Of a stretch of 64,000 nt of DNA, positions 7,717 through 56,342 are shown piece by piece (positions within the stretch are counted from its first letter, which is position 1; every line of letters begins with the position of its first letter). The translations under genes and the position numbers were made by a program. Origin of the DNA: Spirochaetota bacterium (GTDB lineage: Bacteria; Spirochaetota; UBA4802; UBA5550). Below the pieces are notes generated by a model, which did not search any database, had not been told where the DNA came from, and worked only from the letters and a program-made list of their open reading frames with translations. The stretch spans positions 32,001-96,000 of the forward strand of contig JBNKTL010000009.1 of the NCBI GenBank assembly GCA_050298055.1, written 5' to 3'.

Positions 7717-7864
7717 GTTACGACTCATTTCTCTGGGTAACAATAATGTATTTATAAAAAATATCAATACTATGCCCCCGCCGCCTTGGCGGCGGGGGCA
7801 TATCAGTTTTGTTTTTTAATGAATATGATCTTTTATATAAAGCAGGAACAATAAACTGAGTTAT
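7717..7864. mobile_element. Copy A of ~135 bp palindromic MITE-like repeat
   Basis: gttacgactca ... tatgcccccgccgcc-tt-ggcggcgggggcata (7771-7802) ... tcagttttgttttttaatgaatatgat ... aactgagttat; aligns with copies at 13653 and (reverse) 56206. Confidence 0.8.
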
Positions 7865-9212
7865 GGCTGATAAAAAAAAGGTGCTCATTGTTGAAGATTC
7901 ACAGGTTGTGGTGCTTGAGCTCATGGAGAGACTGAAGAGTAAGGATTATGAGATTGTCGGTTCTGCCGCCACCGGGGAAAGAGCCATTGAACTTGCCCGT
8001 GAAAAGGGCCCTGATCTTATCCTTATGGATATCATGCTTGAAGATGATGTAAGCGGTATAGAAGCAGCCGGTGAGATCCAGAAATTCTCCGATGTGCCGG
8101 TCATATATACAACGGCTTATTCCGACGATGAGACCCTGAACGATCTGGAAAAAACCAATCCCTACGCGTATCTCAAGAAACCGTATGATGACAGGGAGCT
8201 CTCAACGGCCATCACCCTGGCCCTTGACCGGTACGAAAACGCGAAAAAACTCAAGGCAAGTGAACAGAAGTACAGGTCGCTCTTTGATAACTCCAGAGAC
8301 GCAATCTATATTACGGATAAAAATGGCAGGCTCCTCAATACGAACAGGTCATTTACCGAGCTTTTCGGTATCAATTCGGGGAATCCCGGGGAACAACAGA
8401 TCTCGGATATTTTCCATAATACGGATGATATGCTGAACCAGCAGCTGGACATGGATGAGCAGGGATTTTCACAGGACCAGATCTTTGAGATGATCGCCGG
8501 GGACAAAAATCTCATCCAGTGCCAGGTAACGTCATCAAAGCTGTTTAATGAGGAAAATGAACATACAGGTTACCAGGGAATTATCAGGGACGTAACGTAT
8601 ATCAGCAACTTTATTAAAAGCCAGCATGATATGATCCTGAAAATGGTTGAGGCCCTTGCTCATGTTGTGGAAGCCAGGGACCCTTATACTGCGGGCCACC
8701 AGAGACGTGTAGCGGCCATTTCAAAGATGATCGCCAGAGAGCTGGATTTCCCCGACGACAGAATTGAGAAGCTTGAAATGGCCGCCATGATACATGACCT
8801 GGGGAAAATCCGGGTTCCCGCGGAAATACTGACGAAACCCACCCGGCTTGATCACAATGAATACCAGATAATACAGATGCATCCCCGGGTTGGCTACGAT
8901 ATCATCAAGGAGATTGATTTTAACTTCCCCCTTGCTGATATCATCCTCCAGCACCATGAGAGATGTGACGGTTCCGGGTACCCCGGCGGATTGAAGAAAA
9001 ATGAAATATTAATGGAAGCAAGAATTATTACCGTTGCCGATGTGGTTGAAGCAATGGCATCGCACAGGCCTTACAGGGCGTCCCTGGGTCCCGGTAAAGC
9101 AAGGGAGGAGATAAAATCCAAGGGGGGGAGACTCTATGATCCGGATGTGGTCGGGGCCTTTTTCCGTGTATTTTATTCGGATGAAGAACTGGTAGAAATC
9201 TTAGAGTTATGA
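7863..9212 (+). CDS. Receiver-PAS-HD-GYP cyclic dinucleotide phosphodiesterase
   Basis: REC, PAS, RDPYTAGHQRRV, HDLGK, HHERCDGSGYP, SHRPYR; all motifs intact. Confidence 0.93.
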   Translation: MADKKKVLIVEDSQVVVLELMERLKSKDYEIVGSAATGERAIELAREKGPDLILMDIMLEDDVSGIEAAGEIQKFSDVPVIYTTAYSDDETLNDLEKTNPYAYLKKPYDDRELSTAITLALDRYENAKKLKASEQKYRSLFDNSRDAIYITDKNGRLLNTNRSFTELFGINSGNPGEQQISDIFHNTDDMLNQQLDMDEQGFSQDQIFEMIAGDKNLIQCQVTSSKLFNEENEHTGYQGIIRDVTYISNFIKSQHDMILKMVEALAHVVEARDPYTAGHQRRVAAISKMIARELDFPDDRIEKLEMAAMIHDLGKIRVPAEILTKPTRLDHNEYQIIQMHPRVGYDIIKEIDFNFPLADIILQHHERCDGSGYPGGLKKNEILMEARIITVADVVEAMASHRPYRASLGPGKAREEIKSKGGRLYDPDVVGAFFRVFYSDEELVEILEL

Positions 9213-11608
9213 CAGATCAAAAAAGTAATAATATAATGAATATAAAACAGAGTATTCTCATTGTTGAGGACTCCTATTCAACATACCTCTTTTTAAAGGT
9301 CCTGCTGGAAGAAAATAACTATCATGTCTTTAAGTGCGTAAGCGCCGGTGAAGACGTCTACGATTTTGTAAAGGAGAACCGGCCCGATTATATCCTCATG
9401 GATATTCTTCTTGAGAAGAAAATGGACGGTATCACTGCCGCCCGGCTGGTCCTGAAGGATTATGACATACCTGTTATATTTGTCACGGCAAATACCGATG
9501 ATACAAACCTGAACAATGCCGTATTGACTGCCCCATACGGTTTTATCGTAAAACCGATCAATGAGAAAGAACTCCTTACGGTTATCAAGACGGCGGAATA
9601 CAGGTTCAAAATTAAAAGAGAGCTTATTGAAAAGGAGAGAAAGTACCGGTCCCTCTTTGAAAACATGTATGATGCCTTTATTTACCTGAAACTTGAGAGG
9701 AGTGAGTCACACGGCGAGAATGATTTTATTATCCTGGAAGTTAACGAGGCCTTTAAAAAGATGTTTCAGATCAAATCGGCCGATGTTCTTGGCCATAATG
9801 TCAGAGAAATCTATCCTGAAATAGAGACTCTTTATCCGGACTGGAGAAATGTTCTTTCAAAGATAGCAATAAACAATGAGTCATTAAAAACGAGCGCCTA
9901 TATAGACGGTCTGAGCAGGTGGTTTAACTTCTCACTCTATTGTCCGAAACAGGATTTTATCTCAATTATATTCGAAGATATTACGGAAAGAGTATTGATT
10001 GAGAATTCCCTGAAAGAAAATGAAGAGAAATTCCGGTCAATTACCACAACAGCAAATGATGCCATTGTTATGATGGATGATGAAGGCCGGGTAAGGTTCT
10101 GGAACAGATCGGCGGAGAAGATATTCGGATATACGGAGGGTGAAGTCATGGGCAGGAGCCTGCATGACGTCATTATTTTCGGTAAAAATATTCAGGGACA
10201 TCTTGACGGCTTGGATAAATGGAGGACTTCAGGCAAAGGTGAAAATATTGGGAAAACCGTAACGATGCCGGCCGTCAGGAAGGACGGTAGGGACCTCTAT
10301 GTGGAACTCTCTTTATCATCTGTTATGCTGAAAAAGAGATGGAACGCCATGGCAATTATCCGTGACATTACCGAGAGGAAGGAAACAGAGGAGAAGCTGA
10401 GTAAAGCCCATAACGAGATTAAAAGCCTGCTCCGATCGATAGATTCCCTGATCATCGGGGTTTCGTTGAATGACAGGATAACACACTGGAACAAGGTGGC
10501 TGAAAAGCTGTTTGACCTGAAAAGTGAAAAAACTATTGGATTAAAAATGTCCGAAATTCCCATTAATTGGGACTGGGACAGGATTTTCGAAGGCATCAGC
10601 AGCAGTATTGTTTATAATAAACCGGTGATGGCAGCCGATATTAAATATGAATCCCGGGATAAAACCAGCAGGTACCTCGATATTTCTATTAATCCCACAA
10701 AGGACCCCGACGGAATTTTTAACGGGTTCATCCTTTACGGCAATGATATTACCGAAAGAAAAACAATGAACATGCAGCTCCTGCAGGACCAGAAGCTCAA
10801 ATCTATCGGTGAACTTGCCGCCGGGATTGCCCATGAAATAAAGACTCCCACCCAGTATCTCAATGACAATATGATATTTCTCAATGAAGCGCTCAGTAAA
10901 TTGAAATGCTTCTATGATGAAACCAGGGATGTGATCGAAAAATCAAAAAAGAACAACCCGGGTTTCGGGGAACTGCGGGAACTGTTAAAACTGGAAAATA
11001 TCATTAAAGAAAACGACCTGGACTATTTGATGGATGAAGCTCCCGTTGCCATTAACCAGTCAATGGAGGGGATAAAAAGGATTTCAAAAATTGTGAATTC
11101 AATGAAGAGCTTCTCTCATCCCGGTATTGAGAATAAGGTCCCCCAGGACCTGAACAAGGCCATTAATGATACTATCATAATATCCAGGAATGAATGGAAG
11201 TATCATTCGGACATTGAAACCGACCTTGATGAGCGGATCAATGAGATATACTGCTATCCCGCGGAACTGAACCAGGTCCTGCTGAATATTATTGTCAACG
11301 CGTCACAGGCCATCGGTGAGGCAATTGAAAATCAGAGCATTGAGAGGGGTAAAATAAATATTTCCACAAAGAAGATAAACGGGAGAATTGAGATTATAAT
11401 CAAAGACAACGGTCCCGGTATACCCGAGGAGATAAAAGAGAAGATCTTTACGCCTTTTTTTACCACGAAAGAGATTGGCAAAGGAACGGGACAGGGCCTT
11501 GCTATTGCCCATTCGGTTATTGTCAATAAGCATAACGGGAAAATCAACGTAAAGTCAGAACCGGGGAAATGGACCGAATTCATTATCTCACTTCCGGCCG
11601 GGAAATAA
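9209..11608 (+). CDS. Receiver-triple PAS histidine kinase (NtrB-like)
   Basis: REC, three PAS repeats, GELAAGIAHEIKTP, PFFTTKEIGKGTGQGL. Confidence 0.92.
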   Translation: MTDQKSNNIMNIKQSILIVEDSYSTYLFLKVLLEENNYHVFKCVSAGEDVYDFVKENRPDYILMDILLEKKMDGITAARLVLKDYDIPVIFVTANTDDTNLNNAVLTAPYGFIVKPINEKELLTVIKTAEYRFKIKRELIEKERKYRSLFENMYDAFIYLKLERSESHGENDFIILEVNEAFKKMFQIKSADVLGHNVREIYPEIETLYPDWRNVLSKIAINNESLKTSAYIDGLSRWFNFSLYCPKQDFISIIFEDITERVLIENSLKENEEKFRSITTTANDAIVMMDDEGRVRFWNRSAEKIFGYTEGEVMGRSLHDVIIFGKNIQGHLDGLDKWRTSGKGENIGKTVTMPAVRKDGRDLYVELSLSSVMLKKRWNAMAIIRDITERKETEEKLSKAHNEIKSLLRSIDSLIIGVSLNDRITHWNKVAEKLFDLKSEKTIGLKMSEIPINWDWDRIFEGISSSIVYNKPVMAADIKYESRDKTSRYLDISINPTKDPDGIFNGFILYGNDITERKTMNMQLLQDQKLKSIGELAAGIAHEIKTPTQYLNDNMIFLNEALSKLKCFYDETRDVIEKSKKNNPGFGELRELLKLENIIKENDLDYLMDEAPVAINQSMEGIKRISKIVNSMKSFSHPGIENKVPQDLNKAINDTIIISRNEWKYHSDIETDLDERINEIYCYPAELNQVLLNIIVNASQAIGEAIENQSIERGKINISTKKINGRIEIIIKDNGPGIPEEIKEKIFTPFFTTKEIGKGTGQGLAIAHSVIVNKHNGKINVKSEPGKWTEFIISLPAGK

Positions 11609-11611
11609 AAT

Positions 11612-13033
11612 ATGGAAATAAAAAGTCTTCGCAAAAGAATTTATCTGCCGGTTTTATTTCTTTCCCTTGTCCTGATTAGTGTCTCAACAATAAGTATAAA
11701 TTTCATTTCCGGCTATCCGTCAAACGGAGTTAAAGCAACGTATATTCTCCTGATTGTTCTTGTGTCGGCTTTCCTGCTTCTGTTCTTCTGGAAATATTGC
11801 GGGAAGATCGAAAATGAAATATACGGCACACAGGGCATGAATGAATCAATTTTATCCGCAGTAACAAACCCGATGATGCTTATTGATGTTGATTATATGG
11901 TCATGAACTTCAACAGGTATGCTGAAGAATTGTTAGAAACGGGACCCGCAGGTATCAATGAGAAAAACCTGTTTGAAAGGGATATTCCCTGGGATGCCGG
12001 GAAAGTCCATGAGATTCTCGAAGCAACAAAAAAATCTCACAAACCCTTAAAGGGCCATGAGATTGTTTTCAGTAAAGACAGAACCATGGGGATATCGGTC
12101 TATCCCATTAATGATTCTCAGGGAAAGATATCAGGTTTCATATTAATGGGTTCGGATATTACCGAGAAGAAAAAATATGAAAACAAGAAAAATATTGAAC
12201 AAAAACTTGTCTCCCTGGGAGAACTCTCCGCGGGAGTGGCCCATGAGATCAACACACCGTCCCAGTATATCATCAGCAACCTCGATTTTCTTAAAAGATC
12301 CATGGAAGATGTCCGGGACCTCTATAAAAAACTGGTGACTTTCCTCAACTGCTATAAATCCGGGAATATCCTGAAAAAAAAACAGCTGAATGGTCTTTCC
12401 GAATATATCAGTACAAAAGAAATTGATTATCTCTTCAGTGAAATTCCGGGGGCCATAAACCAGTCCCTTGAAGGGATGGACCGCATAACAAAAATCGTAA
12501 AATCCATGAAAAGCCTTGCCCGGCATGACGGGGGGGAAAAAATTCAGGTCAATATAAATGAGATGATTGAAGATGTCATCACAATATCGAGGAACGAATG
12601 GAAATATTCCGCCCAATTAAAATCTGACCTGGATTATAATCTTCAGGAAATAGTCTGCAATCCCGTAGAGATAAACCAGGTCATATTGGAACTGATAATG
12701 AATTCAACTTACGCCATATCGCAAAAAATAAAAACCGGGACTTATGAGAAGGGTGTGATTGAGATCTCCACTTGCAGGGAAGACGGCATGGCAATGATAA
12801 CGGTCAAGGATGACGGGACGGGAATACCGGATGAGGTAAAAAACAGGGTCTTTGATCCCTTTTTTACAACAAGGGATGTAGGAGAAGGAACAGGCAGCGG
12901 TCTTTCATATGTCTATACAGCTGTCGTGAGAAGTCATGGAGGATCAATTGACATCAATTCCGGTGAAAAGGGCGGAACTGAATTTATAATAAGACTGCCT
13001 GTGTCAGGAGAAATTAAAGATAATGAGCAATGA
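11612..13033 (+). CDS. Membrane-anchored PAS histidine kinase (NtrB-like)
   Basis: Two closely spaced TMs, PAS, GELSAGVAHEINTP, PFFTTRDVGEGTGSGL. Confidence 0.9.
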   Translation: MEIKSLRKRIYLPVLFLSLVLISVSTISINFISGYPSNGVKATYILLIVLVSAFLLLFFWKYCGKIENEIYGTQGMNESILSAVTNPMMLIDVDYMVMNFNRYAEELLETGPAGINEKNLFERDIPWDAGKVHEILEATKKSHKPLKGHEIVFSKDRTMGISVYPINDSQGKISGFILMGSDITEKKKYENKKNIEQKLVSLGELSAGVAHEINTPSQYIISNLDFLKRSMEDVRDLYKKLVTFLNCYKSGNILKKKQLNGLSEYISTKEIDYLFSEIPGAINQSLEGMDRITKIVKSMKSLARHDGGEKIQVNINEMIEDVITISRNEWKYSAQLKSDLDYNLQEIVCNPVEINQVILELIMNSTYAISQKIKTGTYEKGVIEISTCREDGMAMITVKDDGTGIPDEVKNRVFDPFFTTRDVGEGTGSGLSYVYTAVVRSHGGSIDINSGEKGGTEFIIRLPVSGEIKDNEQ

Positions 13034-13149
13034 TTATTGTTCGGACAGTTCCGGTGTTTTATTTATTTTCGGTGAGCAAAACCCAAATATCGTTCATCCC
13101 CCGTCGATGGTGGCGGGGCCGGTTATAATAATTATTATTCAGAGAGGGC

Positions 13150-13260
13150 TAATATTTTATTTATTTCTGGGAAGCAATGTATAAATATCTTTCTTCCCCC
13201 GCCTTCGGCGGGGGAAGAACCCATTATTTGAATTATTATTCGGGAAAAAATTAATTAATA
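13150..13260. repeat. Short-palindrome intergenic repeat (type 2), copy 1
   Basis: ttcttcccccgcc-ttc-ggcgggggaagaa (13191-13219) with AT-rich flanks (aatatt...aatgt; ttattc...aaattaattaat) resembling 49948-50052. Confidence 0.55.
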
Positions 13261-13296
13261 CTTGTTGTTACTAAAAATATCCGTAAAATATTAATT

Positions 13297-13650
13297 ATGA
13301 AAAAGAAAATATTATTTGTGGATGACGAAAGAAACCTTCTGGACAGCTTAAAGAGGAGCCTGAGGAGCTTCGCAGGTGAATGGTCCATGGAATTTACAGA
13401 CTCCGGTGAGAAGGCAATGAACCTCATGGAGAGGGAAAAGTTCGATATAATCGTATCGGATTACAAGATGCCCGGGATGGACGGACTTGAACTACTGAAA
13501 ATCGTAAAGGAAAACCATCCGGGCACAAAGAGAATTCTGCTTACAGGACAGTCGGATTCTGAAATTTATGACATATCAAAGGAAATCGTAGATCAGTATT
13601 TATCCAAACCCTGTGATCATGATGAACTGGTTTCTTTATTAAAAGAATAA
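13297..13650 (+). CDS. Single-domain response regulator
   Basis: FVDDE, SDYKMPGMDG, RILLTG, LSKPC. Confidence 0.9.
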   Translation: MKKKILFVDDERNLLDSLKRSLRSFAGEWSMEFTDSGEKAMNLMEREKFDIIVSDYKMPGMDGLELLKIVKENHPGTKRILLTGQSDSEIYDISKEIVDQYLSKPCDHDELVSLLKE

Positions 13651-13652
13651 AT

Positions 13653-13784
13653 GTAACTACTTAGCTGTATGGATAAAAAAACCTGTTTACTAAAATATCA
13701 GCAAGATGTCCCCGCCGCTTTCGGCGGCGGGGACATCTCAGTTCTGTTTTTTAATGAATATGATTATCCTTACACATACTGGAG
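13653..13784. mobile_element. Copy B of ~135 bp palindromic MITE-like repeat
   Basis: gtaactacttagctgtatgg ... agatgtccccgccgc-tttcg-gcggcggggacatct (13704-13738) ... cagttctgttttttaatgaatatgattat; colinear with the reverse complement of 56206-56342. Confidence 0.85.
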
Positions 13785-13802
13785 AATAAAAGGGGAACAT
13801 CC

Positions 13803-14957
13803 ATGACTGACAAGATCTTAATTGTTGATGACGAAGAAAACATTCTCTCAAGTATCAGAAGGCAGTTACGGGGGAAATATGATCTGACTACGGCAGTGTC
13901 CGGCAGGGCCGCGTTAAAAATTCTGGATGCTTCAAAAAAATTTTCCGTTGTCATGTCAGACTACAAGATGCCGGAGATGAACGGCGCCCAGCTGCTGGCT
14001 GAAGTAAAGACAAGGGCTCCCGATACCGTGAGGATGATGCTCACCGGCCAGGCGGATATGGAAGCCGTGGTAAATGTCATTAATGAAGGGAGTATCTTCA
14101 GGTTTCTTACAAAGCCCTGTCCATCGGAACTCCTGGTAAAGAACATCGATGAAGGCATCAGGCAGTTTAAACTCATCAACGCGGAAAAGGAGCTCCTTTC
14201 AAAAACACTGAGCGGGAGCCTCCAGGTCATGACGGATATCCTGGTGCTGGCAAAACCGCAGGCCTTTAACAGAAGTCTCCGGGTGAAGGAAATTGCGAAA
14301 AAAATGTTAAAACAGATGAAAATTGAAGCGGCATGGCAGATAGAGATAGCCGCGATGATCTCACAGATAGGATGTGTCACGGTACCGGACTCTATCCTCA
14401 ACAAGGTTTACAAGGACCTCAACATTTCCCATGAGGACAGGGTCATGTACCAGCTCCATACCCAGACAAGCAGCGAGATCATTTCAAAGATCCCGAGAAT
14501 GGAGAATGTGGCGCAGATAATAGCCTACCAGGAAAAATATTATAACGGGACCGGTTTCCCCAGCGACGGGGTCAGGGGAGAGGACCTTCCCCTGGGATCA
14601 CGGATACTCAGGATAGCCATGGACTATGACAACCTTATGCAAGCCAACATAAGCAGTGAAGAAGCCATTGAAAAAATCAAGGAGAGAAACGGGTGGTACG
14701 ACAGAAAACTTGTGGAGGTCCTGGAAAAATCACTTACAAAGACCGGCAGCAGGAAGAAATTTTCGATCATGGATATTTCGCTGAAAGAGTTGACCGAAGA
14801 GATGTACCTTTCAGAGGAAATTGTAACCGCATCGGGAGTCATTCTGGGGGGCAGAAACCAGAGAGTCACAAAAACCATGATCGTAACACTGGATAACTAT
14901 CACAAAAACGGAGAGATAACGGACAGGGTAAGTGTTTTGAAATATGTTGATGAATAA
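13803..14957 (+). CDS. Response regulator with degenerate HD-GYP-like (HD_5) output domain
   Basis: REC (VDDE, SDYKMP, RMMLTG, FLTKPC); SQIGC in place of HDIGK; YQEKYYNGTGFP in place of HHExxDGxGYP. Confidence 0.88.
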   Translation: MTDKILIVDDEENILSSIRRQLRGKYDLTTAVSGRAALKILDASKKFSVVMSDYKMPEMNGAQLLAEVKTRAPDTVRMMLTGQADMEAVVNVINEGSIFRFLTKPCPSELLVKNIDEGIRQFKLINAEKELLSKTLSGSLQVMTDILVLAKPQAFNRSLRVKEIAKKMLKQMKIEAAWQIEIAAMISQIGCVTVPDSILNKVYKDLNISHEDRVMYQLHTQTSSEIISKIPRMENVAQIIAYQEKYYNGTGFPSDGVRGEDLPLGSRILRIAMDYDNLMQANISSEEAIEKIKERNGWYDRKLVEVLEKSLTKTGSRKKFSIMDISLKELTEEMYLSEEIVTASGVILGGRNQRVTKTMIVTLDNYHKNGEITDRVSVLKYVDE

Positions 14958-14970
14958 ATTTAAAAGAGAG

Positions 14971-15011
14971 AAATATAATAGCCCCGGGTTTAACCCGGGG
15001 CTATTATATTT
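14971..15011. terminator. Bidirectional intrinsic terminator between the signalling cluster and the tRNA pair
   Basis: Perfect inverted repeat aaatataatagccccgggtt-t-aacccggggctattatattt between convergent genes. Confidence 0.8.
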
Positions 15012-15017
15012 ACGATG

Positions 15018-15090
<73 letters not shown>

Positions 15091-15119
15091 AAACAAGAAA
15101 GGATGTCTGGCATCCTTAT

Positions 15120-15192
15120 TGAGCCGCCTGGGACTCGAACCCAGGGCCCACGGCTTAAAAGGCCGTTGCTCTACCAACTGAGCTAGCGGCTC
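15120..15192 (-). tRNA. tRNA-Lys(TTT), CCA not encoded
   Basis: GAGCCGCTAGCTCAGTTGGTAGAGCAACGGCCTTTTAAGCCGTGGGCCCTGGGTTCGAGTCCCAGGCGGCTCA; anticodon TTT. Confidence 0.96.
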
Positions 15193-15289
15193 ACATATTT
15201 CTTAAAAAGAGTATTCACTCCCGTCTCAAAATATGGAATTACCAATTACTGAAAGGTCGCCGGACTGTCAATAAAAATACTGAAAAAAC

Positions 15290-16603
<1,314 letters not shown>

Positions 16604-16825
16604 TTAAAATAACAAGCTTTTTTCTCCAAATATCAATGGGATACACGACATAATGAAAGAAATTAATTTTTCACCGGCTAAATTGTCAAGAGAGTGAAAC
16701 CGATATGTAGATTAAGGGTATTTTCAGCTTTTTTTTAAGGGAGCTTCTCAATCTGTTTAAAGCTCCTGTGAGGAGAGGGACAGATGTCCTCTCAGATAAA
16801 TAAAAAACCTGGTAAGTCATAATTA

Positions 16826-17686
16826 ATGAATGTAAGAGAAAAAAAAACATTTTTGGCGCTCATTTTCCTTCTTCTTGTTTTTTCCGGGGAACTGAGAGGA
16901 GAAGAGGGAACAGGAACTGTTTCCCGGAGGGACCGTTTGGCCTATCGTTCTGCGCATTCAAAGGGACACAGGACCTCTTACAGAAGCTACGAAGATTACA
17001 TACCAGAAAGAAGAAAGAGGAATAATAAAAAGTATAAAGATACCGGTAAGTCCCGTAAAAGGGGGCATGCGGTTGTCAAAAAAACTGGAAGACCCGCAGG
17101 GAACCGGAACTATGAACACTACCGTGTAAAAAGAGGCGATACCCTCTACAGAATATCAAGAAAATTCAGTGTCCCGGTAAAGGAGATCAGTAAAGCGAAC
17201 GGGCTGAAAAGCAGGAACAGCATCAGGAGAGGCATGGTCCTGAAAATCCCTGTTTGTACCAAATCACGGGAAAACAGAATATCCGAAAAAACAGGAAACA
17301 GAAAAAAAGACAGGAGGCCCGGGGCGCCTGCCTTTAAATGGCCGTTGAACAGGATCACAAATTATTCCCGGGACGGTAAAAACGGAGTAAAATCCATAGG
17401 GATCCTCATAAAGAGCAGGCCCGGCTCAAAGGTTGTTTCATCCGCGGGAGGGATTGTAAAGAGAATCGGAAAGATGAGAGGATACGGGACCTATGTTGTG
17501 GTCATGCATAAGAACAGGTATGTAACCGTCTATTCCAAGCTGGGCAGTGTCAGTGTGCATGAAGGAAAAAATATCAAAAAAGGCGATATTATCGGGTATC
17601 TTGACGGAAACCGGACCCTGCATTTCCAGATCAGCCAGGAGGGGAAGTCTTTGAATCCGCTTAAATACCTGAACAACAGGTCTTAA
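16826..17686 (+). CDS. LysM + M23-family (NlpD-like) peptidoglycan hydrolase activator
   Basis: Signal peptide, YRVKRGDTLYRIS LysM, FKWP...GYGTYVVVMH...LHFQI; the HxxxD zinc motif is degenerate. Confidence 0.85.
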   Translation: MNVREKKTFLALIFLLLVFSGELRGEEGTGTVSRRDRLAYRSAHSKGHRTSYRSYEDYIPERRKRNNKKYKDTGKSRKRGHAVVKKTGRPAGNRNYEHYRVKRGDTLYRISRKFSVPVKEISKANGLKSRNSIRRGMVLKIPVCTKSRENRISEKTGNRKKDRRPGAPAFKWPLNRITNYSRDGKNGVKSIGILIKSRPGSKVVSSAGGIVKRIGKMRGYGTYVVVMHKNRYVTVYSKLGSVSVHEGKNIKKGDIIGYLDGNRTLHFQISQEGKSLNPLKYLNNRS

Positions 17687-17869
17687 GGATCAGCAAAAGA
17701 ACATTATTATATCCTAAAATACTAAATTTAAGTAACTCCTTTCATATTCCCGGTACATAAAAAAGTATTGATTTTCTGTTGATAAAATAATCACCTGCTG
17801 AATGCTGCAAAGGGTCAGAGCAAAGATAAAAACTCAGAAGATCAGCTCCATTACGTAAGAAGAGAGAGT

Positions 17870-19765: not shown

Positions 19766-19854
19766 AGTTCTTGCAAAATTATGTTTTCTCCTGTTTATAA
19801 GCAGGTAAGAGAAAAACTGAATAATTTGATTCAACAAAAGCGGAGGTTTTCCCT

Positions 19855-20013: not shown

Positions 20014-20019
20014 TACCGC

Positions 20020-40346: not shown

Positions 40347-40381
40347 CATATAATTGTAGAGAGTGAGCGGTTTTTCAGCTG

Positions 40382-40819
40382 ATGTTAAAGGATGAAATAA
40401 ACAGAATTATCGAAGAGACAGCTGAAGAACTGGGTTACTTGATCTATGAAAAATCTGCACTCCTGAGGGGTGAAGATTCGAAAATTGTAGTAAAGCTGGA
40501 CAGTCTTGATGGAATTTCGCATCAGGATTGCGAAAAGTTCAGTAAAAGACTTGATTACAGGCTCGAGGAATCTGAACTTATACCAAATTATACACTGGAA
40601 GTTTCATCACCCGGTTTAAAGAGAAAGCTCAGAAACCTGGAAGAGATTGAGAGGTTTAAAGATTCACCTGTGAAGATTATATATCAGGATGAAAATAACC
40701 GGGTTGTTTATCAGGGGATAGTCACGGGTTTGGAGAATGAACGTATTAAAATCAGGTCCGAGAAAAAGGATATTATTTTAGAGTACGGAAATGTTGTTGA
40801 AGCATTCTTAGATTATTAG
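40382..40819 (+). CDS. rimP: Ribosome maturation factor RimP
   Basis: GISHQDCEKFS, YTLEVSSPGLKRKL; first gene of the nusA operon. Confidence 0.95.
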   Translation: MLKDEINRIIEETAEELGYLIYEKSALLRGEDSKIVVKLDSLDGISHQDCEKFSKRLDYRLEESELIPNYTLEVSSPGLKRKLRNLEEIERFKDSPVKIIYQDENNRVVYQGIVTGLENERIKIRSEKKDIILEYGNVVEAFLDY

Positions 40820-40954
40820 TAATTATTCAGCTATGTATAAAAATATTTTTTAAAAGAAAACAACTGATTATCTCCCCGCCGCCTTCGGCGGCGGGGAGAT
40901 AATATTTATTTTTTTTATTTAATATATATTTTGAACATATAGCTGAGTACTTAC
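40819..40954. mobile_element. Copy C of ~135 bp palindromic MITE-like repeat
   Basis: Terminal IRs gtaattattcagctatgt / acatatagctgagtacttac; central attatctccccgccgcc-ttc-ggcggcggggagataat (40867-40903). Confidence 0.85.
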
Positions 40955-40974
40955 ATGTATTAAAGGTAGTCATA

Positions 40975-42306: not shown

Positions 42307-42345
42307 TTAAAATAACGAGAAAATTAAGGAAACCTGAATATTTAA

Positions 42346-44685: not shown

Positions 44686-44711
44686 GTGAAAATGGATATG
44701 GGTTCAAAAAA

Positions 44712-45080: not shown

Positions 45081-45097
45081 TTCGTTCTTTGTAAACA

Positions 45098-46036: not shown

Positions 46037-46082
46037 TAAAAGTTATAGAGAATTACAAAGTTTAGGAGGACTATATAAAGTC

Positions 46083-46340
46083 ATGATTGACAAAAAGGAG
46101 ACAATCGAAAAGTACAGGACAAAGGACAATGATACCGGCTCACCTGAGGTACAGGTTGCACTTCTTACGGAAAGGATTAACCATTTAACAGAGCATTTCA
46201 AGGTACACAAGAAGGACCACCACTCACGGAGGGGACTTCTGAAAATGGTAGGCCAGAGAAGAAGGATTCTCGGTTATCTGAAGAAAAAGGATATTGAAAG
46301 ATACAGGAAGCTTATTCAGTCTCTCGGATTGAGAAGATAG
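46083..46340 (+). CDS. rpsO: 30S ribosomal protein S15
   Basis: [29 protein letters not shown]. Confidence 0.98.
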
Positions 46341-46562
46341 ATATTGCGTACTCTTAAATTTCATCACTCCGGTCAAATGCCGGCCTGCTGCACATTTTTT
46401 TGCTTAGGGATCACCATTTGACTGAAAAGATGTTTTTATAAAGACCATCCTGTCATGATCCAGATTTTGATAATGAACAGTGATTTTAAAAATAATGAAA
46501 ATGCTCAATGATTTTTACATGCAGCTGAGAAGCTGCGGAATAATATAACAGAGGTGAACTGA

Positions 46563-48653: not shown

Positions 48654-48681
48654 TCTTTTCTCGGAGAATCTCTCACGCGGG

Positions 48682-49950
48682 TTGATAATGACGACACAGT
48701 ACAAGAGTGAAAGCGGATTAACTGTTCTCCTGGAACCGGTCAATGATGTGGCTTCGATTTCTGCGGGCCTCTGGATCAAGTCCGGTTCCAGAAATGAAAA
48801 CCTGTCCCAGTACGGATATGCCCACTTTGTGGAGCATATGCTCTTCAAGGGAACATCAAACCATACCGCTCTTGACATAGCCAAGGAGATAGACAGGGTC
48901 GGCGGTCAGCACAATGCCGCAACCAACAGGGAATATACCTGTTATTATATAAATGTGGTATCTGATTACCTGGAACTGGCAATCAGGATGCTGGCAGATA
49001 TGTACCATAATTCTCTTTTCGATAAAAAAGAACTCGATAAGGAGAAGAATGTCATTATTGAAGAGATAAGGATGTATGAGGATACGCCTGATGAATTTAT
49101 CCATGATATTTTCATTGAAAACATGTTTACCGGCCATCCTCTCAGCCATCCTATCCTTGGGACCATAGAAGGTATAGATCGTTCAACAAGAGACCTTGTC
49201 TATGGCTTCTATGATCAGCATTACAGGGATGATAACTCTATTTTTGTTATCGCAGGGAGTTTTGATGAGCCCCGGGCAAGGGAGCTTGTTGATACGTATT
49301 TTACAAAAGGAGTAAGAAACGGCAAGCCCTTGGCTGCGTCTGAACCGACCCCGCCTGAGAGAATTTCTGTAAACCATATAGAAAAGAACCTTGAACAGGT
49401 CCACTTTTGTCTCGGCACGGAGGGGATCAAAAGAAGTGACAGCAGGAGGTGGGCCCTCTATTCATTGAGTACCATACTCGGGGGAAATATGTCTTCACGG
49501 CTGTTCCAGAATGTCAGGGAGAATAAAGGAATCTGCTATTCCATTTACTCCTTCCATTCTTCGTACAGTGATTATGGCATATTCGGTATCTACTGCGCGA
49601 CTTCGCCCGATAAGTTTGAAAAAGCAGTGGAACTGATCGTTGATGAGTGCCGGGATGTACTGGAAAAAGGTATTTCGGAGGATGAGCTCCAGGATGCAAA
49701 GACATTCATGAAGGGGAGCCTTGCTCTCAGTTATGAAAGTATTGAAGTGAGAATGGGGCAGCTTGCAAAGAACGAGATGACACATAACAGGATCATAACA
49801 TTTAACGATATGGTCAACGAGATAAGTAAAATAACCCCGGATGATATAAGGGAAATAACAGGGCATATCCTGGAGGATAAGCAGCTGTCAATGGTATCGG
49901 TGGGAAAGTTAAACGGTCTCAACACGGAGAAGCTGAAACTGAGCATATAA
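48682..49950 (+). CDS. M16-family zinc peptidase
   Basis: GSRNE, HFVEHMLFKGT (HxxEH), NAATNRE, LGGNMSSRLFQNVRE. Confidence 0.93.
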   Translation: MIMTTQYKSESGLTVLLEPVNDVASISAGLWIKSGSRNENLSQYGYAHFVEHMLFKGTSNHTALDIAKEIDRVGGQHNAATNREYTCYYINVVSDYLELAIRMLADMYHNSLFDKKELDKEKNVIIEEIRMYEDTPDEFIHDIFIENMFTGHPLSHPILGTIEGIDRSTRDLVYGFYDQHYRDDNSIFVIAGSFDEPRARELVDTYFTKGVRNGKPLAASEPTPPERISVNHIEKNLEQVHFCLGTEGIKRSDSRRWALYSLSTILGGNMSSRLFQNVRENKGICYSIYSFHSSYSDYGIFGIYCATSPDKFEKAVELIVDECRDVLEKGISEDELQDAKTFMKGSLALSYESIEVRMGQLAKNEMTHNRIITFNDMVNEISKITPDDIREITGHILEDKQLSMVSVGKLNGLNTEKLKLSI

Positions 49951-50052
49951 ATATTATTTTTTTCATGAAAAAATGTCAGTAAAGTTTTTTTTCCGCCGAA
50001 GGCGGGAAAAACAGGACAAAAAACTGTTTATTCCCGCAAATTAATTAATTAT
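49948..50052. repeat. Short-palindrome intergenic repeat (type 2), copy 2; may act as terminator
   Basis: ttttttccgcc-gaa-ggcgggaaaaa core (about 49985-50011) with flanks resembling 13150-13260. Confidence 0.5.
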
Positions 50053-50112
50053 TTTCTTCTTGAAATTTTTAAGGGTAATAGAGATAAAAGCATTCTACGA
50101 AGAGGTATTAAT

Positions 50113-50517
50113 ATGGCCAACAAGGCAGAAAATATTAACAGTACCATTGGTGCAGGGTCATCTTTCGAAGGAAAATTCTATATTCATGGTTCTCTCAGAA
50201 TAGATGGAAAATTCGAAGGAGAGATTAAAACCGAAAATGAACTTGTTGTAGGCGAAACCGGCAGGGTAAAGACTGATATTTTCGCGCGGTCAGTGGTAAT
50301 TGCGGGGACTGTCATTGGAAATATCAATGCAGTTGAAGAGGTTCGTTTGCTTGAAACGGCAAAGGTGCTTGGCGATATCAATACCCCCATTCTGACTATA
50401 CAGAACGGTGTTGTTGCAAAAGGAACCATCAACCTCACCGGAAAGCAGGGAAAAGACGCTGAAAGGGTAATAGAGGATTCATATAGCGGTGTGCAGGCAA
50501 AACAGCAAAAGCAGTAG
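50113..50517 (+). CDS. Bactofilin (polymer-forming cytoskeletal protein)
   Basis: STIGAG..FEG, LRIDGKFEGEI, VVIAGTVIGNI, VLGDI. Confidence 0.92.
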   Translation: MANKAENINSTIGAGSSFEGKFYIHGSLRIDGKFEGEIKTENELVVGETGRVKTDIFARSVVIAGTVIGNINAVEEVRLLETAKVLGDINTPILTIQNGVVAKGTINLTGKQGKDAERVIEDSYSGVQAKQQKQ

Positions 50518-50635
50518 ATAGATTTCATCAATTAAACCGGTATTAATTTTATTGATTAATACCATTCTAAAAGCCGAAAGATTAAAAAAAGAGGCCCCGG
50601 CCTTAATAATAGTGTGAGCAGAAGATGATATCTTA

Positions 50636-51697
50636 ATGAAGAACAGGTTTTCTAACAACTTTAGTCTGGGTAAACTCAATGTTACACTCTTCCCGGGTGA
50701 AATAATAGTTGTCTATTCGGGCAAGAAGAGGGTTTTCGTTAAGTCGATTCCGCGAAAATTAACCCCTGGCAGGAAAAAACCTCTCTTTGCAGCTGCGATA
50801 ATTCTCCTTTCACTTGTCATTTTCAAATCGATTCCCTCCTCCAGTTCATCTGCTGATGCCCGGAAGATATCAACTGAAGAGAATTCCGAAAAGGAAACAG
50901 AGACTGATTCGGATGAGGAGATGAAGAACAGGCTCCTTTCTTCCCGGGATACGGATTATTCCGAAGAGAAGGAATCCAATGAATTCACGGTTTATGAACA
51001 CAGGGTCATGAAGGGTGAAGTCCTGAGCGAAATAGCCAAGAAATACGGTGTTTCCATGGACACCATCTGCGGAAGTAACAGCCTCCAGTCATACGACCTG
51101 ATAAATGAAGGAGCACTTCTGAAAATTCCCAGCAGGGATGGAATTCTCTACAGGATGAAAAAGGGTAAAGACATTGCCTCAATTGCCAAAAAATACAAGG
51201 TTGAACTTGGAAAAATCCTTACGGCAAATTATCTGAAAAATCCCGATTTCATCCCCGTGGGAACTACGGTCTTTATTCCGGATGCGCGCCCGCAGAATAT
51301 TTTTCCCGGATTTCTCTGGCCTACGGTTGCCCGGGTGATCACATGCGGTTACGGGTGGAGAAGGAATCCCTTCAACAGGAAGCGGAGAGAGTTTCACCAG
51401 GGGATGGATATCAGGGCACGGTATGAGCGTGTGAGGTCAACAAAATTCGGAAAAATAACCTATGCCGGCTGGCTCGGCGGTTACGGGAAGGTTATCATTG
51501 TTGCCCATCCCGGGAGAATAAAGTCCCTCTACGCGCACCTCTCGAAGATATATGTGAGAAGAGGCCAGTATGTGAAACAGGGACAGTTTATCGGCAGGAC
51601 CGGCAACACAGGAAGGTCAACGGGCGCCCACCTTCATCTTGAGATCATCAGGAACGGAAGACCGATAAATCCCTTTATCTACCTGAGAAGAAGATAA
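50636..51697 (+). CDS. Double-LysM M23 metallopeptidase
   Basis: Two LysM domains, FHQGMDI (HxxxD), YAHL, STGAHLHLE; follows bactofilin. Confidence 0.92.
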   Translation: MKNRFSNNFSLGKLNVTLFPGEIIVVYSGKKRVFVKSIPRKLTPGRKKPLFAAAIILLSLVIFKSIPSSSSSADARKISTEENSEKETETDSDEEMKNRLLSSRDTDYSEEKESNEFTVYEHRVMKGEVLSEIAKKYGVSMDTICGSNSLQSYDLINEGALLKIPSRDGILYRMKKGKDIASIAKKYKVELGKILTANYLKNPDFIPVGTTVFIPDARPQNIFPGFLWPTVARVITCGYGWRRNPFNRKRREFHQGMDIRARYERVRSTKFGKITYAGWLGGYGKVIIVAHPGRIKSLYAHLSKIYVRRGQYVKQGQFIGRTGNTGRSTGAHLHLEIIRNGRPINPFIYLRRR

Positions 51698-51821
51698 AAG
51701 AGTATCCCCTAAACCCCCCTCAATATGTTTTAAAAAAATGTATTGACTCAGATCCATTCTGAAAATATTACCCAAAGGGTAATCAGATATAATTATCTTT
51801 TGCTGATACCTGGAGAACGAG

Positions 51822-53900
51822 ATGATCAAAGATGCGAACTTTTTATGTGAAATAGGCACCGAGGAGATCCCTGCCGGTTATATTCCCCCGGCCATGAGTG
51901 CTATTAAGGATATCCTGAGCAGCAAATTAAAGGAAAGCCGTATTGAATATGCCGATATTGAATTGTTTGCAACACCCAGAAGAATCGCGATCTTCATCTC
52001 TCATCTCTCTGACAGGCAGCTGGAAGAAGAGGTCGAGATCAAAGGACCTTCGGTAAAGGCGGCATATGACACAGATAAAAAACCGACCAGGGCGTTAGAG
52101 GGGTTCCTTAAGGGGAACAGTGTTGATTTAAAGGACACCTTTACCGTTGACACTGATAAGGGTGAGTATGTCTACGCCAGGAAAAAACTGGAATCCAGCG
52201 ATACAATTGATATTATTCCGGAGCTGATTGATCATGTGGTAAAGGAGATCCCCTTTCCCAAGCAGATGAAGTGGAGCAATAAGGGGATACTCTTCCCCCG
52301 GCCCATAAGATATTTTCTGGTTCTTTTTAATGACAGGGTTGTGGAATACGAGATGGATGGGATAAAGGCATCCGACAAGACCCGGGGCCACTATATCCAG
52401 CATGATGAGATGCTGGATATAAAAAAGATCTCTGATTATGAAAAGATACTGGAGAAGAACGGTGTCATTATCGATCAGAAAAAGAGGAAAGAACTTATAT
52501 CCGGTGAACTGAAGAAGGCTGCCGAGGGTGTTGGAGGAGTACTCATTGAGGACGAAGAACTCCTTGATACGGTCACCTTTCTTGTTGAAAATCCCCACAT
52601 CGCGGTCTGTGAGTTCAACAGCGATTTCCTCAGGATACCTGATATCGTCCTTATCGCCGAAATGAAGGAACATCAGAAGTACTTCTCTGTTGCCGATAAG
52701 AACGGCAAACTGACCAGGTACTTCCTTGTGACATCCAATAATCCTGTTAATGAAAATGTAAAGACGGGAAATGTGCGGGTCATAACCGCCCGGTTCAATG
52801 ACGCGGGCTTTTTCTATGACGAAGACAGTAAACTGAAGCTTGAGGAAAGGGTTGAGTCCCTTAAAAGTGTCCTGTTTCACAAGGACCTTGGTTCAATATA
52901 CGATAAGGTTATCCGGATGCAGGAAGTCGCGGGGGCCATTATCCATGAACTTGGACTTGATGCGGATAAGGCCGGAAAAATTGAACGGGCCATTCTCCTT
53001 TCAAAAACAGATCTTGTAACATCAATGGTTATTGAGTTTCCTTCCCTGCAGGGGAAGGTTGGCAGGATATACGCCCTCAATGACGGCGAGGAGAGCGAGG
53101 TTGCCGGGGCAATAAATGAACACTATAAACCGAGATCCCAGGACGATGAGAATCCCACCAGTATGGTCTCCATTGTTGTTTCCCTCTCTGAGAAGATCGA
53201 TAACATCTTCGGGTCGTTTTCCGTGGGGAACATTCCAAAGGGTTCACAGGACCCCTATGCCCTGAGAAGGCAGGCCAATGCAATTGCGGATATTCTCATA
53301 AGCGGTAATATCAATCTTGAACTGAAGCAGGTCCTTGAAAAAGTCGCGGAAAAATATAAAAACGGTCCCGGCCTTGTTGATCAGATCATCGATTTTCTTT
53401 CCGCAAGGGTAAAGACGATATTCGCGGACCGCGGTCTCCGGTATGACGAGATCGATGCCTGCCTCTCAACAGAGAGTACCGATTATACGGAGTTATTCAG
53501 GGTTGCGAAGAGCCTTAACGAATTCAGAAAGAAAGAAAAGTTTTCTGAAATGCTTCTCGGTTTTAAACGAATGAACAATATTGTTACCCAGTTCAGGAAG
53601 AAGAATGATAATTACAGCCTGAAATTTGATGAATCAAAGCTTGTGGAGAAAGAGGAGAAAGATCTCTATGCCTTCTTCAGGGAAAGAAGGAGTGATATTG
53701 ACAGCTATATCAGCAGGAGCAGCTATATTGAACTCTTCAATTTTATTATTGAAGGGAAGAACCTCATTGACAGTTTCTTTGACAAGGTGCTTGTTATGGA
53801 TAAGGATACGGCCATCAGGGACAACAGGATCTCCCTGATTGAGGATATCCTGGGGAATTTTACCGGTATTATGGACTTTTCAAAGATATCGGACAGTTGA
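51822..53900 (+). CDS. glyS: Glycine-tRNA ligase beta subunit
   Basis: EIGTEEIP, TPRR, FPRPIR, EFPSLQG, GSQDPYALRR, FFDKVLVM, NRI. Confidence 0.95.
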   Translation: MIKDANFLCEIGTEEIPAGYIPPAMSAIKDILSSKLKESRIEYADIELFATPRRIAIFISHLSDRQLEEEVEIKGPSVKAAYDTDKKPTRALEGFLKGNSVDLKDTFTVDTDKGEYVYARKKLESSDTIDIIPELIDHVVKEIPFPKQMKWSNKGILFPRPIRYFLVLFNDRVVEYEMDGIKASDKTRGHYIQHDEMLDIKKISDYEKILEKNGVIIDQKKRKELISGELKKAAEGVGGVLIEDEELLDTVTFLVENPHIAVCEFNSDFLRIPDIVLIAEMKEHQKYFSVADKNGKLTRYFLVTSNNPVNENVKTGNVRVITARFNDAGFFYDEDSKLKLEERVESLKSVLFHKDLGSIYDKVIRMQEVAGAIIHELGLDADKAGKIERAILLSKTDLVTSMVIEFPSLQGKVGRIYALNDGEESEVAGAINEHYKPRSQDDENPTSMVSIVVSLSEKIDNIFGSFSVGNIPKGSQDPYALRRQANAIADILISGNINLELKQVLEKVAEKYKNGPGLVDQIIDFLSARVKTIFADRGLRYDEIDACLSTESTDYTELFRVAKSLNEFRKKEKFSEMLLGFKRMNNIVTQFRKKNDNYSLKFDESKLVEKEEKDLYAFFRERRSDIDSYISRSSYIELFNFIIEGKNLIDSFFDKVLVMDKDTAIRDNRISLIEDILGNFTGIMDFSKISDS

Positions 53901-53924
53901 TATTTTTTCCTGTTAAAACAGGGA

Positions 53925-54698
53925 TCATTTCTTTTTTAGCGGTTTCTTTTTCTTTGCAGGAGGGTTTTTCCCCGGTTTGGAAGTCCCGGCTTTAGCCGTT
54001 GATTTCTTACTCCCGGCAGGTTTTTTCCGGGAGAACATTTCCATTGCTCCATCTTCAATCCTGTACGCTCTGTCAGAAATTTCCACAAGGTGGGTCTCAT
54101 GGGTAGCCAGCACCGTTGTTATCCCCCTCTCCTCTTTTAAGCGAATAAAAAGATCAATAATATCTTTCGTAGTCTCATCATCCAGGTTACCGGTGGGTTC
54201 GTCCGCAAGTATGAGAAGGGGATTGTTTATGATTGCCCGTGCAATGGCAACTCTCTGCCTTTCTCCGCCGGAGAGGGTTGCGGGATACTGGTTGATGATG
54301 TTCCCGATTTTAAGAAAATCAACAAGTTCAGCAATTTCACCGTTAATGTTTTTTGAAGTAAACGGGTTCAGGATTGCCGGGTAGAGGATATTCTCATAGG
54401 CTGTGAGTTCGGGAAAAAGACTGAAAAACTGGAACACAAAACCCATCTTCCTGTTCCTGAAACGGGACCTTTTCATATCTCCCCACCTGAATATATTCTG
54501 GCCCTGGAAACGGACACTGCCGTCATCCGGTTTCAGGAGTCCCGATATGATACCGAGCAGGGTGGATTTCCCGGTGCCCGATTTTCCGGTTATGGCGACA
54601 ATTTTACCCGGTTCTATATCAAGGTTTATTCCGTGAAGAATGTTCCTGTCTCCGAATGAGACACGGATGTTTTCAAGTTGTACAAGAGGTTTATTCAT
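53925..54698 (-). CDS. LolD/MacB-type ABC transporter ATP-binding protein
   Basis: [37 protein letters not shown]. Confidence 0.93.
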
Positions 54699-54709
54699 TG
54701 TTTCACTTC

Positions 54710-56005
54710 TCAGCTTGTCTTTTTTACCGCCTTGAAGAGGCTCATGTTTGACGCAAAGAGAGCGGGAATAAATGCCGAAAGCGATGAAATCGAAACAGAG
54801 AGAAGAACGGCTTTGAGCAGAAGGTCGATTCCCGCGGGTTTGAATGTAAGGCCTTTAAGAACGGGTATCCACGATGAGAGGTTCCCGGTCATATAGCCCG
54901 TGAGATAGTTCCCCGCATAGAATCCTATAACGCCGTACAGGGCCCCGATCAGGGCTGCTTCCAGAATGAAGAGAAAGACAATCCTTATTTTTGAAACTCC
55001 GATGACCCTTTTAAGAGAAAATCCGTAACTCCTGTTATGCACGATTATCAGGTATGAGTTGAATATGGCGATAACCGTTAAGAGAAGGACCACTGCGACG
55101 ATCAAGAGGGAGAGGCCGTCGACGATTTCCAGAGCCCTGTTGGTCTTTCTTGAAATGTCCGCCTGGGACTCAATCTTCAGGTTCATCTTTTTTAATTTTG
55201 CTGTCAGAGAAGGAAGCAGTTTGATATCCTTTACCCGGGCAAAAAGCCGGACATAGGAGTACCCCTTTTTATATTTTCCCGTGTCCTGGCTGTGCGCCCG
55301 GGTAAATTTTGAAATAAAGGTATTGGGAACAAGGATCCCTGTAAAATTTAGAGCTGAAGTAAAGGAGTGAAGTTTGGCAGGGAGTACGTATTTCTTCTCC
55401 ACATCGGAATAATAATTGGTTGTGACAATCTGCAGTTTTCCGGGAAACCCTATCAACATCTTTTCATTAAACTGCGGCAGGCCCCTTACCGAGGTAAACT
55501 GGTTCAGAATAGCCAGTGACATCCGGGGAAGAATCACGGGAAGCACCGGAGTGTTCCTGAATTCTTTCCATCTTCTTTCCTTTCCCCTGAAAAATCCCGT
55601 ATCGATTCCAAAAACAGGAACATGCTGTTTTTTCTTCTTTCCCAGGAATTCAGCCTTGACTTTGACCTCATAGTTAAGCCGGGTAAGACCGTAAACATGG
55701 GAAAATTCCTTTAATTTTCGGATCATGACCACTTTCCAGGGAGGAATGGCGTTGCTTTTACTTGCTATTGTGGAGAATGTTTCACTCCCACTTTGTGTCC
55801 GGGGATAGATTGTTATCTCATTAATTGCCATTGTTCCGAAAAGTTTCTTTCCGATATATTCCTTCACGGAACTTCTCAGGGAGAGATAGAGAACAAGAAA
55901 CGAGATAAGAAAGAGTATCCCGAAGCTTGAAACCAGTGCCTTCAGGATATTCTTGGACATATCTTTTAAGGTGAATTTGAGATTACGGGTAAAGTATCTA
56001 AACAT
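54710..56005 (-). CDS. FtsX/MacB-like ABC permease
   Basis: One N-terminal TM, large periplasmic loop, three C-terminal TMs, FILEAALIG. Confidence 0.85.
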   Translation of the reverse strand: MFRYFTRNLKFTLKDMSKNILKALVSSFGILFLISFLVLYLSLRSSVKEYIGKKLFGTMAINEITIYPRTQSGSETFSTIASKSNAIPPWKVVMIRKLKEFSHVYGLTRLNYEVKVKAEFLGKKKKQHVPVFGIDTGFFRGKERRWKEFRNTPVLPVILPRMSLAILNQFTSVRGLPQFNEKMLIGFPGKLQIVTTNYYSDVEKKYVLPAKLHSFTSALNFTGILVPNTFISKFTRAHSQDTGKYKKGYSYVRLFARVKDIKLLPSLTAKLKKMNLKIESQADISRKTNRALEIVDGLSLLIVAVVLLLTVIAIFNSYLIIVHNRSYGFSLKRVIGVSKIRIVFLFILEAALIGALYGVIGFYAGNYLTGYMTGNLSSWIPVLKGLTFKPAGIDLLLKAVLLSVSISSLSAFIPALFASNMSLFKAVKKTS

Positions 56006-56205
56006 ATCGCGTTATTTTACAGATTTTAATAATGAACTCCCGATTATAATAATTAATGGTATATTTACAATAAGGTTCTTTACGTCAACAAATTGTTTTA
56101 ATAATGTCTTCCTACAATAGGTTACATATATTTTATAGAGGAATGATATTAATTACCAGTACATTTTGTAACTGCTGAGTTTGAGAAGAAATATGACTAC
56201 TCTTC

Positions 56206-56342
56206 GTAACTCAGTTATATATAAGAATAATCATATTCAATAAAAAAGATAACTGATATGTCCCCGCCGCGGTCGGCGGCGGGGACATATTCTTGATATT
56301 ATAGTAAATAGGTTGATTATAACCATATAGCTGAATAGTAAC
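56206..56342. mobile_element. Copy D of ~135 bp palindromic MITE-like repeat
   Basis: gtaactcagttatat ... atatgtccccgccgc-ggtcg-gcggcggggacatat (56256-56290) ... atatagctgaatagtaac; GTAAC at both ends. Confidence 0.85.

Follow-up and report, generated by a model that had tools for sequence, protein, structure and literature searches.

The stretch of DNA analysed here (the window; 64,000 bp, G000:C9:32001-96000) belongs to a 4.71 Mb spirochaete assembly of 199 contigs and harbours several copies of a dispersed, non-coding repeat of ~140 bp with a GC-rich hairpin at its centre. Throughout, G000 is the genome under study, other G numbers are related genomes, L numbers are individual loci and C numbers are contigs; "shell" denotes the ends and arms of an element around its hairpin, with shell A being of IS66 type, shell B of IS4 type and shell C having a third type of end. 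[quoted passage not shown]

7717..7864, plus strand: MITE copy in shell A, 3 bp past the stop of a response-regulator/histidine-kinase gene, with a hairpin at 7771-7802, a decayed left end and a degenerate right end.
13653..13784, plus strand: MITE copy flanked by two response-regulator genes; left terminal repeat almost intact, right one lost; hairpin at 13704-13738.
40819..40954, minus strand: MITE copy between rimP and nusA; both terminal repeats present; hairpin at 40867-40903.
56206..56342, minus strand: MITE copy with a hairpin at 56256-56290, placed in a divergent intergenic region.
850..983, minus strand: decayed copy whose hairpin is shortened, in a gap adjoining a PilZ gene (E 8e-4 in the profile search described below).
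789..802, minus strand: lone terminal repeat with two mismatches and no recognisable body.

A profile hidden Markov model (HMM), seeded with the four main window copies and iterated twice, recovers all five copies that an earlier reading of the sequence (the initial annotation) had listed, with matches at 854-983 (E 8e-4), 7716-7843 (E 2e-24), 13652-13783 (E 2e-34), 40823-40955 (E 3e-20) and 56209-56343 (E 5e-38). These five copies are present in both orientations and are all intergenic, as had been stated, and the stems and loops of the four main ones read as written there; the lone end at 789-802 on the minus strand had been overlooked. DNA-fold z-scores are between -6.1 and -10.0 for the four main copies and -1.95 for the decayed copy at 850-983. 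Across G000 the model finds 393 loci at E<1e-3 and 333 at E<1e-10, with none in the reversed genome that served as control, which bears out the extrapolation to hundreds of copies per genome. The family adds up to 45,458 bp, or 0.97% of the genome. On sequence divergence the G000 copies are old, with a mean identity to the consensus of 82% and a nearest-neighbour identity with a median of 83% and a maximum of 95.6% (205 of 211 long copies having a match).

The consensus starts and finishes with a 16-bp terminal repeat, GTAACTACTCAGCTAT. Common ends had been recognised in the window copies as GTWAC-like; they do exist, and comprise 16 bp rather than just GTWAC. Not all of them are well kept: only the copy at 40819-40954 preserves both, and the right ends of the copies at 7717 and 13653 and one end of that at 56206 have decayed. 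For the 54 copies with both ends, the flanks form exact 8-bp target duplications in 9 cases and duplications with at most one mismatch in 26, versus 0.1 and 0.6 for shuffled flank pairs. None of the other lengths between 4 and 12 bp gives more than one exact match. The duplications are 89% AT; that of the 40819..40954 copy is degenerate, with the last 5 of 8 positions matching.

IS66 ends identical to the 16-bp ends of the MITE are found at contig edges of G000 (three left and two right). The left end at C74 leads to an open piece of 136 aa in which the domains DUF6444 and zf-IS66 are recognised, and its first 77 bp recur on C75 and C91; the right end at C43 comes after a PF03050 piece and shares its last 77 bp with C73. 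The IS66 in G000 is seen as these open pieces of 136 and 162 aa at contig ends, with its middle unassembled, and the left flank at C75 equals the right flank at C43 over 8 bp, giving one 8-bp duplication. Matches to the IS66 piece occur in 17 of the 122 genomes of the class, and several relatives have the whole element, 1.5 kb long with a single open reading frame (ORF) of 471-487 aa and the same ends as the MITE. In whole relatives, ORFs of 471-482 aa exceed the cut-off of the NCBIfam IS66 model NF033517 (180 bits); loci L132 and L133 do so with 305 and 299 bits and contain PF03050, zf-IS66 and DUF6444; the whole IS66 of L132 is surrounded by an exact 8-bp duplication. The partner ends are of GTAA type, like those of ISDge4, an ISBst12-group IS66 element of Deinococcus geothermalis which is described with ends that are almost identical, a repeat of 8 bp and one ORF (PMC12898284). 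The family, which could not be assigned from the window alone, is now assignable from elements outside it as IS66 of the ISBst12 type, and the autonomous element with matching ends that the initial annotation had proposed to look for is this single-ORF IS66, in pieces in G000 and whole in relatives. Two more IS66 transposases in G000, on C87 and C91, are classical and have different ends. A search of viral sequences with the IS66 piece gave only four weak matches, and the plasmids searched contain no MITE copy. Similarity between the MITE and its present partner stops at 16 bp, so that the MITE does not read as an internal-deletion derivative of that IS; such an origin is not a requirement for all MITEs. 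An internal-deletion IS66 derivative of 180 bp does exist at G000:C6:102524-102705, where a left end and a decayed transposase start are followed by a MITE-like right end.

Placement of the copies was assessed against gene gaps from a simple home-made gene caller (3902 genes). Called gaps contain 374 of the 393 copies, one copy is centred in a called gene and the rest fall outside the gene-call frame. Co-directional gaps hold 198 of the 374, divergent gaps 164 and convergent gaps 12, compared with 59%, 32% and 9% of gap bases. Weighting by AT-rich 8-mers shifts the expected shares to 56%, 36% and 7%, so target preference accounts for part of the gap bias. Orientation relative to transcription is random (103/95). 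Twenty-three element edges come to 5 nt or less from a stop codon, and the rimP stop codon TAG ends on the first G of the 40819..40954 element. A constant spacing between insertions and a -35 box was considered and rejected, since 216 flanks show no peak. At the rimP-nusA site the spacer is 155 bp in G000, 12-24 bp in 28 of 29 relatives and occupied by a different 114-bp sequence in the 29th, so that the site lacks the MITE in all 29; this comparison concerns a single site and 29 of the 60 relatives with a rimP match, all from other genera.

The shared 16-bp ends, the 8-bp duplications and the empty rimP-nusA site identify the repeat as an IS66 MITE. Together with the high copy number, they support the earlier proposal of a non-autonomous mobile element, for which empty orthologous sites had been named as a check. 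Judged from these sequence features, an ISBst12-type IS66 transposase likely moved the copies.

For the 220 copies that have both a core and typed arms, and with expectations from column frequencies, the outer six stem pairs show 75 two-sided Watson-Crick changes versus 15.0 expected; the covariation of the outer stem noticed in the window is therefore real. Without one subfamily-inherited pair there are 34 versus 4.8 expected, with no clustering by arm kinship. The ten core pairs have 26 double changes versus 7.6 expected. They also have 257 one-sided breaks among 2140 scored pairs genome-wide, at odds with the perfect pairing that had been described. As a control, the terminal repeats, which are equally complementary and 110 bp apart, show little excess (66 vs. 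54.1 expected); covariation is concentrated in the stem with the short loop. Extension of the stem by at least 6 bp beyond the core is seen in 127 of 218 copies, versus 38.9 for shuffled arm pairs, and by at least 9 bp in 5 copies versus 0.14. Relative to the arms, the loop reads GAA in 53 copies and TTC in 41, and rarer loops likewise occur as complementary pairs. Nearest neighbours have the same loop orientation in 52 of 94 cases (47.3 expected, p 0.22), whereas the positive control of this kinship test, the subfamily pair, gives 164 of 193 versus 127.7. A loop that lies either way round regardless of relatedness is a DNA-level signature. Searching with the arms alone yields 262 copies (control 0), 163 with the core within two edits and 45 with no recognisable hairpin, many by clean deletion. 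The notion that structure rather than sequence is maintained is not supported, given these 45 copies and the sequence conservation of the inner 23 bp across genera. Polymerase template switching is described as a cause of both arm homogenisation and spacer inversion (PMC8604942, PMC8794818). Because of the random loop inversion, the hairpin-less copies and the avoidance of convergent gaps, we favour template switching over RNA selection; the matched stem changes are likely due to such DNA copying errors and not to RNA function.

The 23-bp core extends well beyond the IS66-type shell. Its exact pattern is present in 40 of the 122 genomes of the class (30 of the 63 others in the family), with up to 126 copies (0-1 in the reversed control), and titled records with the core are mostly Spirochaetota or Leptospirales. 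In G011, G013, G004, G113, G035 and G095 it sits within a different element of ~121 bp with ends CAGTAWTTATTCCTAAA (shell B). Such ends are the commoner core carrier among the loci read: 68 of the 82 cores in the 80 loci listed by the genome-wide scan have a CAGTAWTTATTCCTAAA-type end on at least one side. Shell B elements have a 9-bp duplication in 38 of 75 cases, and their partner is an IS4-family element from metagenomes (L402; 1241 bp, 370 aa, NF033592 181 bits vs. 115), of which relatives occur in the same family, one of them 96% identical and another complete and flanked by a 9-bp duplication. This partner is absent from 24 PF01609 matches in five genomes and from 55 viral loci. The short arm of shell B matches the IS4 right end beyond the terminal repeat (p<0.001 and 0.0035), its outer stem covaries and its arms are AT-rich; the core is central, and the loop lies mainly one way (57 GAA, 5 TTC). 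G094, G095 and G007 have the core in a third shell of ~99 bp (shell C, ends AGACTTGTTGCAWAAC), for which 30 loci yielded no partner. Core-bearing IS66-type shells also occur in G012 and G094, and one such end was seen in G037. G012 has both IS66- and IS4-type shells as well as two hybrids (L508, L516), which are possibly misjoins as the draft breaks at the core. All three shells have the core at their centre, between arms of 58/59, 46/52 and 37/39 bp. An origin by fold-back, whereby the element would be one IS end duplicated long ago as its own mirror image, was rejected for shell A, where the inner arms match weakly (p 0.04; 0.014 in G094; eight sets, uncorrected), and for shell B, where the arms fit two different IS4 ends better. 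Arm exchange between inverted copies in G000 was likewise rejected, with no left-left or right-right copies, 158 left-right and 188 not fully typed.

In L108:1351-1520 (G013) an IS4-family transposase gene stops right at a core copy, as if inserted into its stem. In L059 and L016 (G001) the core and one arm are repeated head to tail beside assembly gaps. At L239 and L284, a contig titled Bacteroidaceae shares flanks and gene with a spirochaete locus and is probably misbinned. G011 contains nine near-identical IS50/Tn5-like IS4 elements of 463 aa (L113, L117, L120, L122, L124, L126, L128-L130), most of them within or next to a palindromic repeat, CTCCCCC...GGGGGAGA, which suggests target-specific insertion. 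The same genome has another IS66-type mini-element with ends GTAACTGYTCATAAA and a related hairpin (L122:3284-3503 and L117:2909-2993), once nested in an IS4-type MITE.

Conversely, the same ends carry other hairpins. Repetitive extragenic palindromic (REP) clusters resembling CGTC-1 have an IS66 end within 170 bp in 16 of 33 cases in G000, versus 6.5% of random gap positions, several of the 33 looking like chance matches in genes. This second cargo fits the CGTC-1 description, with a TGTC tag, an 8-bp stem starting AT, a 4-nt loop and dimers; CGTC-type dimers also lie within IS4-type ends (L452) and third-type ends (L561, L567). Yet another hairpin type is enclosed by third-type ends at L554, L556 and L559, and by IS66 ends in a single case (C18:42392). 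No transposase is dedicated to CGTC repeats according to Di Nocera et al. (PMC3733652), who suggest that they are possibly moved by many. We put forward, as a tentative idea with less than even chances, that the 23-bp hairpin is a second-order parasite or a portable transposition aid moving between IS66, IS4 and third-type ends, that IS ends are the missing vehicle spreading transposase-less REP families such as CGTC, and that many-to-many combinations of ends and hairpins exist throughout this spirochaete class. Two more hairpin families of G000, GCCGCAGAT... with 25 clusters and GCCACAGAG... with 43 (e.g. C41:29962, C7:10762, C24:57673, C8:112484), have decayed IS4-type ends beside 6 of 25 and 14 of 43 clusters, versus 7.9% at random.

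For the repeat in the window, we consider it probable that an IS66 transposase spread the 140-bp passenger in an old burst and that the hairpin is a separate module, paired by copying of one arm onto the other. In such a scheme the transposase would act in trans on the shared ends and insert the element into AT-rich intergenic DNA, and selection would remove copies landing in genes. After insertion, template switching at the hairpin would copy arm onto arm, giving double changes and stem extension, and would also invert the loop and sometimes delete the hairpin, so that copies may decay as sequence while their hairpins are re-paired, extended, inverted or deleted. The core could have entered the three shells via recombination or repair at a shared palindrome, or by independent capture.

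A number of observations weigh against this scheme. G000 has no complete assembled IS66 copy, the MITE arms show no likeness to present IS66 ends past 16 bp (p 0.5-1.0), and inspection gave an exact duplication for only one whole or near-whole IS66 element of the relatives. No strain-level empty site was seen in the 36 kb (window 1-16000 and C54:1-20000) compared with three runs of one study (X1-X3, X1 being possibly the source), as expected of an old burst. As to the hairpin, most copies have no or one double change and 8 of 220 have two; multi-base copying events are few. GC sites are kept at 88.6% in the core, 82.8% in the terminal repeat and 66.4% in the arms, and arm-to-arm copying alone would leave mean divergence unlowered, so the stem may in addition be under selection or protected.

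Such selection could act on DNA, with a protein-bound or extruded central kink helping any transposase to join ends 100-140 bp apart. This would account for a hairpin at the centre of unrelated shells, and is in line with the central core in all three, with its exact sequence in 40 of 122 genomes and with core GC sites that are kept better than those of ends or arms. The commonest loop, C-GAA-G, is the extra-stable DNA triloop, although the variants CAA and AAA break GNA. The same ends also occur without the core or with other hairpins, and we regard a kink under selection as rather unlikely; a central kink aiding transposition is nonetheless compatible with the IS66 MITE explanation. One core in three shells could also mean that the core is an independent REP-like element, put into existing MITEs by a REP-associated tyrosine transposase (RAYT), another HUH enzyme or some other nuclease. 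In two planctomycete records (L257, L268) another GC palindrome, without IS ends, surrounds the core, and G000 has seven Y1_Tnp genes. None of these seven loci is flanked by the palindrome, as had been suggested for checking, and no core with up to three substitutions lies within 1.5 kb of them. All 232 cores of G000 are within family matches, an IS66 end is within 170 bp in 184 of 231 (6.5% for random gaps), the core position is fixed within each shell, and the stem foot of the consensus has no unpaired GTAG or CGTC tag as defined in PMC3733652, all of which makes such an insertion improbable.

A domesticated RNA hairpin, selected as a terminator or mRNA stabiliser, had been offered initially as an alternative to a mobile element, and the strong predicted stem, the 23 edges close to stop codons and the double changes above chance would fit it. 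The genomic placement speaks against it: convergent gaps hold 12 of 374 copies (9% of gap bases) and divergent ones 164 (32%), orientation to transcription is even (103/95), the loop on the mRNA strand reads either way round (36/34), and REPs that act as RNA are described with the reverse gap pattern (PMC3733652). The consensus has no T-run after the stem, and with Rfam 15 the window gives only two tRNAs at gathering score and the four element loci reach at best 21.8-28.8 bits, far under the cut-offs. RNA-structure selection is therefore very improbable. Least credible, with a chance close to negligible, is that assembly at a palindrome gave rise to the loop inversions and stem variants as artefacts. 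Contigs and unitigs do frequently break at the core, and the two G012 hybrids may be misjoins. However, the copies are ~83% identical on average and hence not collapsed, unitigs match single copies without differences (one of 10.7 kb from run X1, possibly the source sample, contains the 7717..7864 copy with 0 differences), a left arm with a GAA loop is found in unitigs beside the TTC copy of the window, and a single-contig genome has both orientations (24 GAA, 3 TTC). A RAYT-driven REP, an RNA terminator or stabiliser and an assembly artefact all fit worse than an IS66 MITE with template switching.

Elsewhere in the window, positions 2501-14957 form a dense cluster of sensor kinase, response regulator and HD-GYP genes that holds two MITE copies. 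At 13009-13130, at the end of kinase gene 11612-13033, 120 bp are replaced by 19 other letters in run X2; this is a strain difference and not the MITE. Several of the small contigs C95-C199 look foreign (plant-like retroelement pieces, mixed rRNA fragments), indicating some contamination in the bin, and CRISPR-like repeats are present on C99, C144 and C168.

In itself an IS66 MITE is ordinary, even one that makes up ~1% of the genome and has a copy inside the rimP-nusA-infB operon. What merits attention is that stem covariation, usually read as proof of a functional RNA, is accompanied here by random loop inversion and by little excess in the long-range control, so repeats of this sort ought not to be catalogued as RNAs. 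In addition, one hairpin occurs in three unrelated kinds of ends that also carry CGTC-type REP dimers, which makes the many-transposases idea of Di Nocera et al. directly testable (PMC3733652). Full-text searches of openly accessible papers gave no IS66-type MITE in spirochaetes and no core common to unrelated IS ends. The available text of PMC11602168 does not mention IS66, and the 1.4 million candidate MITEs reported there may hold this family unnamed.

Compared with known systems, the window element resembles the ISBst12 group (ISDge4) in its ends (GTAACTRCTCAGC), its 8-bp duplication and a partner IS with a single transposase ORF (PMC12898284), and differs in having no ORF, only 16-bp ends in common with the partner and a central hairpin. 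The IS4-type MITE of shell B, with L402 as partner, shares the 23-bp core and its central position, AT-rich arms and an outer stem that covaries, but differs in its CAGTAWTTATTCCTAAA ends, 9-bp duplication, length of ~121 bp, short arm matching the IS4 right end and loop that lies mostly one way. With REPs (GTAG and CGTC superfamilies) and REPINs it shares a GC-rich hairpin of 20-40 bp, an intergenic location and hundreds of copies (PMC3733652, PMC6006769). Unlike these, the main core has no unpaired tag and flanks no RAYT gene, and it comes with DDE-type ends and target duplications; mostly unidirectional and convergent gaps would be expected of REPs, whereas core copies avoid convergent gaps (198 co-directional, 164 divergent, 12 convergent). 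RUP, NEMIS/Correia, ERIC, Nezha, Chunjie and the R0 and R2 MITEs of P. fluorescens are likewise 70-300 bp long, with short terminal repeats shared with an IS, target duplications, intergenic location, high copy number and folding (PMC3184786, PMC3733652). No IS66-type MITE came up beside these in the literature covered. The window element differs from them in that its interior is common to unrelated types of ends, the reverse of the usual definition by ends. It is, on good evidence, a MITE of a known kind with an unusual modular interior.

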